From Bacteroidota bacterium (lineage in GTDB: Bacteria > Bacteroidota > Bacteroidia > 2-12-FULL-35-15): a stretch of 53,684 nt of DNA. Below the pieces are notes generated by a model, which worked only from the letters and a program-made list of their open reading frames with translations, ran no database searches and was not told the DNA's origin. The DNA lies in the NCBI GenBank assembly GCA_040388455.1, contig JAZKBX010000120.1, positions 10,982 to 64,665 of the forward strand, read 5' to 3'. Below, in pieces: positions 28,085 to 31,543 of this stretch. A program made the position numbers and the translations under genes. Numbering within the stretch: the stretch's first letter is position 1; every line of letters begins with the position of its first letter.

Positions 28085-29050
28085 ATGAAAAATTTAATTT
28101 CAATATTGTTCTTGATAGTTTCTTTGAATGCGTATTCTCAATTTGGACCAATTCCTAGTGGAGGTGGTGGTAGTACATTAAAGAATCCTCCATTAAATAC
28201 ATATCTGCCTAATGGTTCTGTTATTGGCTCTTATGCTGCACCATCAAATGATAATTTTGCATTTGATGGGACAAATATGTGGGTAACTAATAATGCTTCT
28301 AGCGGTTCTGCGTTAGATACTGTTTTAGTGTTTTCTGCAACAGGTAAGCGGGTTCAGACTATTTTATTAAGGGTTTCATCTAATCCACAAGGCATTGCAT
28401 TTGATGGGACAAATATGTGGGTAACTTGTTCAGGTAAAAACGGTGTTTACAAAATAACCAATACTTATGATACTGTTTTTTATTCTTTAGGGTTTTACCC
28501 TGTTGGCATTGCATTTGATGGAACAAATATGTGGGTTGTTGATTTAACAAATAATGGAGTGTCGAAAATATCATCTACTGGAACGCATACAGAATACTCA
28601 TTGTCTGGGGCTACAGATCCTAGGTTTATCGCTTTTGATGGTACTTATATGTGGGTTACTGATGATGCCACTACTGGTGTCTTTAGAGTTGCTTCAAATG
28701 GAACATCTGTATTTTATGATATGACAGGATCCGAGGTTCCTTATGGTGTATGTTACGATGGGAGGTATATTTGGACCGCTAATTCTTCTGGTAATAGTGT
28801 GAGTAGAATATCTCAAAGCGGATCCATAATAACTTATTCTATTGGCGCTAACACAAATCCTCAATTTGTTGCGTATAGTGGTAACTATATTTATACTTCT
28901 AATCTTAATAATTCTACTTTAACTAAAATAACTACTTCTAATGGATCAGTAACTTCTATTTCTGCACCAAGCAATATATATTATTTGTTTTATGATGGCA
29001 GTAATATGTGGTTAGGTGGATCGCGTTTATATAAAATGTTGGTTAGATAA
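28085..29050 (+). CDS. Beta-propeller protein (YncE/Vgb-like repeats) with N-terminal signal peptide
   Basis: About 7 repeats of P.GIAFDGTNMWVT; MKNLISILFLIVSLNAYS|Q signal-like N-terminus. Confidence 0.75.
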   Translation: MKNLISILFLIVSLNAYSQFGPIPSGGGGSTLKNPPLNTYLPNGSVIGSYAAPSNDNFAFDGTNMWVTNNASSGSALDTVLVFSATGKRVQTILLRVSSNPQGIAFDGTNMWVTCSGKNGVYKITNTYDTVFYSLGFYPVGIAFDGTNMWVVDLTNNGVSKISSTGTHTEYSLSGATDPRFIAFDGTYMWVTDDATTGVFRVASNGTSVFYDMTGSEVPYGVCYDGRYIWTANSSGNSVSRISQSGSIITYSIGANTNPQFVAYSGNYIYTSNLNNSTLTKITTSNGSVTSISAPSNIYYLFYDGSNMWLGGSRLYKMLVR

Positions 29051-29062
29051 AAAATATTTTAA

Positions 29063-29491
29063 ATGGCTTTACTTACGGCTAGGCAAATACAAACTATAAA
29101 CATAGCAAGATCAGCTATTCCTGGAATGTTGTACCATGGAACTGATGGTAAGACATTCCAGGGACAAGTTGATAGAAAGCTATTAGAGTATCAGCCAGCA
29201 GTTACTTCTTCATTTATTCCTACTGCAACAAATAAAGAAGTAAACGTTCAAAAGGCTATTGAGAATATAAGTGTTGCGGTTGCTGGAGCATCTTTAAAAG
29301 AAATACCTCTTCTTAGTGGTGTAATTAATGGAATAAATACTGTTTTTGTGTGGAAATATGTTCCGTTAATTGTTAATTATAATGGTCAAATATTGAGAGA
29401 GGGTGTTGGTTATACTATCTCTGGAACGGTTACTACATTAGCTAATGCTCCATTTATTGGGGAATTAGTTTGGGCTTACGGAAACTACTAA
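29063..29491 (+). CDS. Tail fibre-associated protein
   Basis: 'GVINGINTVF...YNGQILREGVGYTISG...AP' motif of fibre-shoulder domains. Confidence 0.55.
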   Translation: MALLTARQIQTINIARSAIPGMLYHGTDGKTFQGQVDRKLLEYQPAVTSSFIPTATNKEVNVQKAIENISVAVAGASLKEIPLLSGVINGINTVFVWKYVPLIVNYNGQILREGVGYTISGTVTTLANAPFIGELVWAYGNY

Positions 29492-29503
29492 AATTATGAA
29501 ATT

Positions 29504-31543
29504 ATGAAAAAAATATTATTATGTTTATTGTTGTTTCCTATTTTTTCACAAGGGCAAACTATTGGCGCAAATCAAATAAAAAAGGATGCAACATTAACAG
29601 GAAATGCTTTAAATGAATTACATGTTGTTGCTTCTGGAACAGGTGCGACAGGTACAACGGGTTCCACGGGTTCTACGTCTAATACTGGTGCTACCGGTTT
29701 AACTGGTAGCACTTCTAACACCGGTTCTACAGGCGAAACAGGTTCTACAGGTATAATAGGAGTAACCGGATCAACGTCCAATACAGGTGTAACTGGAACA
29801 ACCGGAAGTACAGGATCAGTAGGTGTAACATCAAGCACAGGTGCTACAGGATTCACGGGATCAATTGGAATAACCGGATCTACTGGTAGCACTTCTAATA
29901 CGGGCAGTACAGGTTCTACTGGCATCACAGGTAGTACAGGCTCAACAGGCTCAACAGGAGATAGCTTCTGGACAGATTCAGGCGGTTTAATTTCACCAAC
30001 TACACCTACAGACAGTGTTATGATTACCAAGCTTTACGGAAGTACTTCATCTAATGGTGATATAGCTATTTCAGGAACAACGAGCACAACTAGAACAACT
30101 TCCTCGGTTATACTCCAACCAACTGCTGGAGATGTAAAAATAGGAACATCTTTAGCTATACCTGTTTTATTTACAGGCATAGCAACCAAGTTTACTTTAG
30201 TTGCCACAAACGCTGTACCTGCTATTATGAAATCGTATCAAAATAGTATATCTAGTTGTATTTTCACATTAGCAAAATCAAGAGGAGGGGCTATTGGTAC
30301 AGAACTTGCTACATCAAACAATGATACCTATGGCATTATAAATTTTGAGGGAGTAAACTCTTCAAATGCTATTGCTAGTGGGCCGTATATACAAGCTTCG
30401 CAAGACGGTACAGCAGGCGCTACGTTTATACCTGGCAGGCTTCAATTTTTCACCGGAAGCAATACTGCTACTACTGCCGAAAGAATGAGAATTGATAATG
30501 CTGGAAATGTTGGTATAGGAACAACCCCAACAGCTAAATTCCATGTTGCTCAAACAGCAACAGCTACAGGAGCTTTAACTGGAATTGTTTACACAGGTGC
30601 AATAAATACAAATCAAACAGCCTCAACAGGGATTTCGTCTGTTATATTTACAACAGCAGGTAGGCAGTGGGCTACTGGAGCTATATCTTTGCAACGGGAA
30701 TTTAGAATAACAGCGCCTACCTATTCATTTGTTGGGGCTTCAACTATTACTGAAGCAATTACATTAAGCGCAAGCACTCCTATTGCTGGAACAAATGCAA
30801 CAATTACAAGGGGTTGGGCTGCGAGATTCTTGGGGAATTTCAACGTGTCTGGGAGTTCTTATTTTGGAGATACGTCAATTGCTCCTTTAGCTGTGATTCA
30901 TGCAGTGAAAACAACGGAGCAACTACGATTAGGTTATGATGCGAGTAATTATTATTCAACAACAGTAGGAAGTACGGGAGGTGTTACATTTAATGCCGTT
31001 GGTGCTGGTTCTGTTTTTACATTTAGTGATGCGGTTGATTTAGCAAATAATTCAGTAGCCGTTACTCAGGCACTAAACGACAGTACAACTAAGGTTGCTA
31101 CTACTGCTTTTGTTGACAGGGCAATTGCTTCTACAGCAGCAGGAACTATTTATGAAGCAACGCTAACCTTAACATCTGGTCAAATAAAGAATTTATATAC
31201 TTCTCCGCAAATAATAGTTGCATCTCCTGGAGCTGGAAAATACATTGAATATATTTCAGGGTCAGCAACCTTGACTTATGTTAGTACTACATACACGGGA
31301 GGGGTATATCTTGTTTTGACCTTTCAGTCTAGCAACCCAACAACTGACATAGCTTATAACCCAATTTTAGAATCAACAGCAACAAGAACGGTTAACTGGA
31401 ATGATGATAATTTTTATCCTAACGATGCTACAGGAAATATATTATCAAACACAGCATTGTATGTTGGTTGTTTAAGTTCAAATCCAGCTACAGGCGATGG
31501 CACATTAAAGGTTCGAATTTTATACGCAATTAGAAACTTCTAA
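29504..31543 (+). CDS. Tail fibre-like protein with G-X-T repeat stalk and N-terminal signal peptide
   Basis: [18 protein letters not shown], ~110 aa TGSTGxT repeat, [15 protein letters not shown] and [12 protein letters not shown] fibre motifs. Confidence 0.8.

Follow-up and report, generated by a model that had tools for sequence, protein, structure and literature searches.

The window examined here, a 53,684-nucleotide stretch of DNA, spans bases 10982-64665 of the 76,156 bp contig C120 (JAZKBX010000120.1, Bacteroidota assembly GCA_040388455.1), the genome of a short-tailed phage of roughly 76 kb with a Bacteroidota host. The subject of the analysis is a module of four closely packed genes, all on the + strand, that follows the gene for a giant protein: 27623-28078, 28085-29050, 29063-29491 and 29504-31543. 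The second and fourth of these genes, which code for a beta-propeller and a collagen-stalked fibre and start 6 and 12 nucleotides past the preceding stop codons, respectively, begin with Sec-type signal peptides that end before a glutamine, and each is preceded by a gene for a small signal-less protein. Under the textbook rule, the parts of tailed phages all assemble in the cytoplasm; the original prediction, made from the sequence alone, held that these two receptor-binding-like proteins are exported.

The propeller gene (28085-29050) encodes a protein of 321 amino acids (aa). Its first 18 residues (28085..28138) consist of an MK n-region, an 11-residue hydrophobic core and the tripeptide A-Y-S, with Gln at position +1; the N-terminus reads MKNLISILFLIVSLNAYS and continues with QFG. 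The mature part (28139..29050) is a seven-bladed propeller of the YVTN/Vgb-lyase type that follows a short Gly-rich linker. The fold assignment made earlier is borne out by the Pfam family Vgb_lyase (PF24684, 57.8 bits against a cut-off of 50) and by seven spaced, conserved Trp/Asp-Gly repeat motifs; in a comparison of the family profile with the PDB, the archaeal surface-layer propeller 1l0q (2e-33) and the Vgb lyase 2z2n (8e-22) were matched. The domain is present in 4 viral contigs, either built into large tail fibres or encoded by a separate, signal-less gene that precedes the lysis genes. In cells, the domain shows an extracytoplasmic bias, with signal-like or prepilin-type N-termini in 62 of the 120 homologues listed.

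The fibre (29504-31543, 679 aa) starts with a 17-residue signal peptide (29504..29554) composed of MKK, an 11-residue hydrophobic core and S-Q-G, again with Gln at +1, so that the mature N-terminus begins with QTI. It continues with a conserved N-terminal module from Q18 to about S44 (29555..29635), a collagen-like G-X-T stalk at residues 45-153 (29636..29962) and a shaft with the repeat unit RQWATG...AGTNATIT, common to many fibres, that leads into the distal domain (29963..31543). The stalk matches Pfam Collagen (2.4e-11) and collagen-like tail families of PHROG, and the protein as a whole matches 19 PHROG families, mostly annotated as tail fibre, in agreement with its earlier identification as a fibre with a G-X-T stalk. 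Sequence searches detected no relative of solved structure, and Peptidase_S74 was not found in a Pfam search at E-values up to 0.01; residues 207-348 show weak tblastn similarity to cyanophage proteins, some of which are annotated as 'chaperone of endosialidase'.

The two small proteins of the module are candidate partners of the signal-bearing pair. Gp27623 (27623..28078, 151 aa) is a candidate tail-side adaptor, judging by its position and by the match of its residues 19-71 to the N-terminus of the tail fibre family phrog_1980 (1.6e-6); a homologue with 44% identity is encoded after the giant virion protein in the viral contig L008. In gp29063 (29063..29491, 142 aa), the C-terminal 65 residues (78-142) are 48% identical (8e-17) to the C-terminus of a 225-aa protein that is encoded directly upstream of a signal-bearing fibre in the contigs L028 and L027; thus, a signal-less domain travels with this type of fibre. 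The fibre gene is followed by a gene for an acidic 62-aa protein (31547..31735, + strand), and a gene for 63-73 aa occupies the same place in L027 and L028, without detectable similarity to the protein encoded here. For gp27623, gp29063 and gp31547, no Pfam family was matched beyond noise at E-values up to 10, and all Atlas leads were below 0.9, those for gp27623 being adaptor-like but weak.

Export signals of the propeller and the fibre

According to Bochtler et al. (2018, PMC5837995), the substrates of the Sec pathway and signal peptidase I in Bacteroidota follow the Q-rule, with Gln at position +1. The host genome bin (4.7 Mb in 382 contigs, 91% complete, 5.7% contaminated) follows this rule as had been assumed: among 3431 open reading frames (ORFs) of at least 120 aa, Gln comes after the candidate site in 444 of the 838 signal-like N-termini, a 7-fold enrichment. 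A 19-column cleavage-site matrix trained on 438 Q-type signals from the same bin was used as the yardstick. The propeller and the fibre score 21.2 and 20.8 bits, respectively, which corresponds to the 79th and 76th percentiles of the cross-validated host signals (median 18.4), and the next ORF among the 112 of the phage reaches 6.4 bits. The cuts placed by the matrix, after AYS in the propeller and after SQG in the fibre, coincide with those originally read from the two N-termini, and both expose Gln at +1. None of 2901 internal host windows reached 15 bits, and none of 11,200 shuffled phage N-termini reached 20 bits (maximum 13.4); 29 of 2442 host 'negatives' scored at least 20 bits, and all 26 of these that were listed look like real signals with long n-regions. 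The two signals are indistinguishable from the host's own Q-rule signals. A heuristic signal filter was passed by 7 of the 112 ORFs of the contig, and the products of the neighbouring genes 27623 and 29063, which had been described as signal-less, are not among them.

Translation cannot begin just past the signal in either gene because no in-frame ATG, GTG or TTG follows the hydrophobic segment until about residue 65 of the propeller or residue 176 of the fibre; earlier in-frame TTG codons lie only inside the hydrophobic cores. A downstream start or a dual isoform is thereby ruled out for both proteins. At 11 residues, the cores are too short for membrane anchors. Lipoproteins of the Llp or Cor kind were considered and rejected: there is no lipobox, the propeller leader contains no Cys, and the sole Cys of the fibre leader lies inside the core after Leu-Leu. 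Cargo of the type IX secretion system (T9SS) was ruled out as well, given that neither protein matches the T9SS C-terminal domain (Por_Secre_tail, TIGR04183) at E-values up to 0.1; at least 150 proteins of the host bin carry such a tail and, among the matches listed, none is encoded on C120.

The export postulated in the original prediction is thus well supported by the sequence, with host-like signals far beyond chance expectation, no alternative start and conservation in relatives (see below), although this falls short of proof. In their n-region, hydrophobic core, small residues at -3 and -1 and Gln at +1, the two proteins resemble the known Q-rule substrates; the latter, however, are cellular periplasmic, outer-membrane or T9SS proteins, whereas the proteins described here are encoded in the late structural operon of a tailed phage and lack a T9SS tail. 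A search of the 91% complete bin for the plant-type glutaminyl cyclase (PF05096) gave no matches, and the six matches to the M28 family belong to a family that is not specific for glutaminyl cyclase.

Signal-bearing and signal-less fibres in related phages

Residues 1-50 of the fibre, searched with HMMER in full against 1.84 billion representative proteins, retrieved nine other proteins, eight of which align from their first residues. All eight have a signal peptide followed by the pattern Q-(T/S/Q)-(I/L)-G-(A/G)-(N/S)-Q-(I/L)-K and by a G-X-T stalk. In the ninth, the match comes from a similar motif repeated nine times within the protein. A further protein added to the alignment, P0213, also has a signal followed by Gln. 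Among the 10 aligned fibre homologues, which support the cut before QTIGA, the +1 Gln (Q18) is invariant, along with G21, Q24, K26, D28, T30, N37 and L39, and the hydrophobic cores vary in sequence. P0247 has an insertion of four residues between the Gln and TIGANQIK, and its Gln is still at +1, suggesting that the place of the Gln is tied to the cut, not to the motif. All relatives with this N-terminal module thus keep the signal, whose conservation in homologues was one of the checks named with the original prediction. In the alignment, residues 18-44 and the stalk are conserved and the C-terminal domains are unrelated; by this comparison, the fibre is built like a true virion fibre, in which the N-terminal module stays constant and the distal domains are exchanged. 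The exact pattern of the module had 0 matches in viral contigs, and a query with the alignment matched a single viral contig and a single metagenome contig but none of the genome contigs.

Signals cut before Gln also occur with other N-terminal modules. Residues 340-678 of the fibre are 69% identical to a 718-aa fibre of L029, a phage contig binned with a Bacteroidota metagenome-assembled genome; that fibre has a different N-terminal module (QTTPD...), again with a signal and Gln, as do P0129 and P0175, which share the L029-type N-terminus. On the signal matrix, 19 signal-bearing relatives and analogues score 13.5-25.7 bits, and 8 signal-less fibres and controls score -21.9 to -2.9 bits. The signal heuristic was passed by 25 of the best 120 fibre homologues (the query included). 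Among 14 viral loci that encode fibre relatives, two (L015 and L019) show a clear signal followed by Gln in the matching ORF; at the loci from named genomes, the N-terminus is visible in 14 of 26 and, of the four labelled as Bacteroidota, L029 has the signal, L053 does not and two are unreadable. Runs of consecutive large proteins with signals cut before Gln are encoded in L015 (1704-14043; five signal-bearing by eye, four flagged by the heuristic), L006 (4602-9660) and L019 (5141-12460), so the feature can cover a whole module.

The order of a signal-bearing fibre gene, a small gene and the lysis genes recurs in L027/L028, L029 and the Cellulophaga phage phi18:3. In all four of these independent phage contexts, the present one included, no further structural gene stands between the signal-bearing fibre and the lysis genes. 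In L027/L028, the order is portal, a 187-aa protein, the 225-aa protein, fibre and lysis. Phage phi18:3 (NC_021794.1), a Flavobacteriia phage with a distantly related portal, encodes immediately upstream of its lysis cassette, as the phage described here does, three large proteins (gp085, gp086 and gp087) with signals cut before Gln that score 13.5-22.7 bits. These three proteins, for which no collagen stalk was noted, unlike the fibre described here, are annotated in GenBank as virion, structural or tail proteins 'based on experimental MS/MS proteomics analysis' (MS/MS, tandem mass spectrometry). To our knowledge, their leaders have never been discussed.

Phage proteins exported by way of Sec signals include g3p of filamentous phages, the Llp of phage T5 and the Cor lipoproteins, the T4 antiholin RI and the spanins. 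Among these, g3p is a receptor-binding virion protein, but of phages that are extruded through the envelope, and Llp and Cor are small lipoproteins, not fibres, that are encoded beside receptor-binding genes; we know of none in this set that is a fibre of a tailed phage lysing its host. Nor did a full-text search of the literature retrieve a passage describing tailed-phage fibres with Sec signals (PMC6199706, PMC12210884, PMC5723332, PMC8143477, PMC12946066); in the passages concerned, PMC5723332 merely counts signal peptides in two rumen Bacteroides phages, and PMC6199706 states that the targets of phage diversity-generating retroelements lack signal peptides. The closest cellular parallel that can be drawn is with the MAT fibres of Bdellovibrio bacteriovorus, trimeric adhesins resembling phage tail fibres that have a signal peptide, a conserved N-terminal domain (a beta-rich domain of roughly 130 aa after the signal), variable tips and, in one subfamily, an S74 chaperone (Caulton et al. 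2024, PMC10769870). By analogy, MAT fibres offer a precedent for fibre-like trimers that can fold after export, with the differences that they are cellular, sit on the predator surface, have no virion to join and in many cases carry the S74 chaperone that the Pfam search did not detect in the phage fibre.

Possible fates of the signal-bearing proteins

The reading that we favour, and to which we give about an even chance, is that Sec would carry both proteins to the periplasm, where they would mature, and that they would attach to signal-less adaptors once the cell lyses. The propeller and the trimeric, collagen-stalked fibre would be host-recognition proteins made as precursors for Sec and signal peptidase I. 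Late in infection, the precursors would cross to the periplasm and be cleaved before Gln, which a host cyclase would turn into pyroglutamate, and the mature proteins would fold and trimerize there. Lacking both a T9SS tail and a lipobox, they should stay periplasmic until lysis, when the products of the holin-like, endolysin and spanin-like genes would break the envelope and the exported proteins would meet the cytoplasmic particles. The conserved mature N-terminal module would then dock onto signal-less tail-borne proteins, for which gp29063 and perhaps gp27623 are the candidates. As a secondary benefit, the exported proteins may occupy receptors on the debris of the dying cell. Among the functions originally proposed for the pair, virion attachment at lysis fits best, in view of the fibre architecture, the position before the lysis genes, the co-travelling signal-less domain and the MS/MS annotation of phi18:3; attachment in the periplasm before lysis, proposed in the same breath, is unlikely because capsids are cytoplasmic.

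Several observations weigh against this scenario. Export and cleavage of the two proteins are predicted from sequence and their presence in virions by analogy with phi18:3, and the adaptor role of gp27623 and gp29063 is suggested by position and by co-occurrence in two near-identical contigs. The syntenic relative L008, which shares with this phage the shaft motif and the upstream gp27623 homologue, has a signal-less fibre; the same is true of the proteins with the same genomic role in phi38:1 (gp085 and gp087, 0 of 2 with signals), elemoF (genes 72 and 73, 0 of 2) and crAss001 (gp22-26, 0 of 5). All these signal-less fibres have hydrophilic N-termini (MARIK..., MAVIPGS...), with negative scores on the signal matrix. 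A fibre of this kind can therefore do without the signal, and the generality implied by the original prediction was too strong. The phage itself has further receptor-binding candidates that lack signals: for example, the 171-aa protein encoded at 18657-19172 (+ strand) matches the 'short tail fiber' and 'tail fiber adhesin' families of PHROG (7.8e-36 and 2.1e-32), so at least one receptor-binding candidate would be made in the cytoplasm. The QTIGA motif recurs internally in P0241, and hence the conservation of Q18 may be partly structural. The propeller has no relative closer than about 40% identity and none that spans its N-terminus; with only about 27 residues before the first blade, it shows no evident docking domain. 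The phi18:3 proteins are analogues, with no detectable similarity to the propeller or the fibre; their virion status is known from the record annotation, and the virion preparation may have been contaminated by periplasmic proteins. Finally, D-[ST]-[AILVMT] glycosylation sequons are not in excess in either protein (2 in the propeller against 1.29 expected, 2 in the fibre against 2.78).

The strongest competing explanation, although an unlikely one in our estimate, is that the proteins are exported but never become parts of the virion, acting instead in the envelope of the infected or lysing cell by masking receptors or by loosening surface polysaccharide for release. Receptor masking would follow the logic of phage T5 Llp and the Cor proteins, with progeny not lost on debris or neighbouring infected cells, and the genes of these exported proteins, too, adjoin receptor-binding genes. 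The evidence from the matrix, the nulls and the relatives supports export equally under this explanation; the missing docking domain of the propeller, the extracytoplasmic location of most of its cellular relatives and the signal-less fibre candidates elsewhere in the phage are all compatible with it. It is opposed by the fibre family's conserved N-terminus and variable C-terminus, which is the build of virion fibres, by L027/L028, where the signal-bearing fibre is the only fibre gene seen between the portal and lysis genes (in partial contigs), and by the annotation of the leader-bearing phi18:3 proteins as found in virions. As for superinfection exclusion, which had also been suggested, its scope at the outer face would be limited given that, with no T9SS tail and no lipobox, the surface is out of reach before lysis.

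Improbable, in our view, is a role of the leaders that does not involve export of the virion-building pool, such that folding and attachment of the fibres take place in the cytoplasm and the leader is buried in the tail, serves as a membrane-proximal assembly tag or is removed in some other way. In all tailed phages that have been studied well, the cytoplasm is where fibres are assembled, and relatives have signal-less fibres with the same shaft. On the other side, the leaders fit the host cleavage-site statistics position by position, including the small residues at -3 and -1 and Gln at +1, and the signal properties persist while the core sequence drifts; an 11-residue core leaves no room for an anchor. 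Going by PMC5837995, signal peptidase and the periplasmic cyclase are the only factors for which the residues at -3, -1 and +1 matter.

That the two proteins are bacterial cargo, namely, surface adhesins that serve lysogenic conversion and not the phage particle, is very improbable: both domains have relatives in cellular secreted proteins, some with T9SS tails (PF18962 on P0184 and P0185), and C120 carries elsewhere an ORF that we take, from its sequence, to be serine-recombinase-like, but the genes sit close together in the late operon, flanked by the gene for a giant virion-type protein and by the lysis cassette, they have no homologue in the rest of the host bin and no compositional anomaly, and all recovered contexts of their close relatives are phage contexts. 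A recent capture from this host is rejected given the lack of homologues elsewhere in the bin and of a G+C anomaly (35.5% in C120 against 35.6% in the bin).

If export followed by docking at lysis is correct, fibres that mature outside the cytoplasm would be an exception to the rule of cytoplasmic assembly, in phages of a phylum that dominates gut and marine particle-associated communities. A broader version of this proposal, to which we assign somewhat less than an even chance, is a two-compartment build in some tailed phages of Bacteroidota: heads would be made in the cytoplasm along with tails that bear signal-less adaptors, and Sec-exported, pyroglutamate-capped, periplasm-folded fibres and lectin-like propellers would snap on just after holin, endolysin and spanin merge the compartments, with the mature N-terminus as the docking element and the gp29063-type C-terminal domain as the socket. 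Annotation pipelines that class signal-bearing proteins as non-structural would miss such receptor-binding proteins; virion proteomics should include pyroglutamate N-termini in the searches; recombinant fibres should be expressed leaderless or in the periplasm; and prediction or engineering of the host range of Bacteroidota phages would need to consider Sec, signal peptidase and glutaminyl cyclase as host factors. The contribution of the present case is a defined family of fibre N-terminal modules with an invariant +1 Gln, along with the pairing of both the propeller and the fibre with a small signal-less protein encoded just before them.

Lysis genes and the remainder of the phage genome

The lysis cassette lies downstream of the fibre module on the + strand. 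It starts with a gene for a 140-aa protein (31823..32245) with one transmembrane segment near residue 34, which is probably holin-like, judging by its position, and had no match in Pfam or PHROG. The next gene encodes an endolysin of the M15 peptidase type that has no signal (32249..32761; phrog_2649, 3.1e-19, with a weak match to Pfam Peptidase_M15_4), followed by a 91-aa membrane protein with a transmembrane segment (32779..33054), for which its position suggests a holin or antiholin. The last product is a 165-aa protein (33051..33548) with an N-terminal lipobox (...AASSC) and a C-terminal transmembrane helix, an architecture that we take to be that of a unimolecular spanin of the phage T1 gp11 type and that also closes the lysis genes of L027 (6798-7247).

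Bases 1-55 of C120 are repeated exactly at 76102-76156; such an exact 55-bp end repeat is a typical assembler trace of a circular or circularly permuted genome, indicating that the contig represents the whole genome of a phage, as opposed to a prophage. The + strand of the window encodes the large terminase (phrog_6681, 1e-90), the portal (phrog_6547, 1e-60), matches to several 'virion structural protein' families of PHROG and two giant proteins of 1296 aa and 1893 aa. The portal is 23-26% identical to those of the Flavobacterium 'elemo' podophages and of the Cellulophaga phages phi38:1 and phi18:3 (23% for phi18:3). A DNA search found no close relative among isolate phages, and tblastn gave only weak partial matches. 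The giant 1893-aa protein directly before the fibre module (21870-27551, + strand) has no PHROG match and no BLAST similarity to phi18:3; giant proteins occupy the equivalent position in L008 (at least 1973 aa), phi18:3 (gp123, 1935 aa, a virion protein by MS/MS) and elemoF (3694 aa).

Two homing endonucleases are encoded within the structural operon on the + strand, one of the GIY-YIG type (11775-12320; phrog_314, 1.4e-32) and one of the HNH type (19163-19681; phrog_59, 2.7e-31). The head/neck module includes a 179-aa protein (11231-11770, + strand) that begins with the Cys-rich MCCESCNC and continues with a collagen-like G-X-Y run, without a PHROG match. Upstream of the window, at 7120-9481 of C120, lie ORFs that, judging only by their N-terminal sequences, are GroES-like and GroEL-like; chaperonins are annotated in the phi18:3 and phi38:1 records as well. 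The final gene of the leftward operon (33602-34018, - strand), read from an internal Met, codes for a small protein that matches no family and begins with a good signal peptide, one outside the Gln type (MKKFILIFVLALVATAFTNVAVAS followed by YTG); it may be a periplasmic accessory or exclusion protein. Near the end of the window, a short ORF (53509-53682, - strand) consists of tandem GKQPGNSE peptide repeats.

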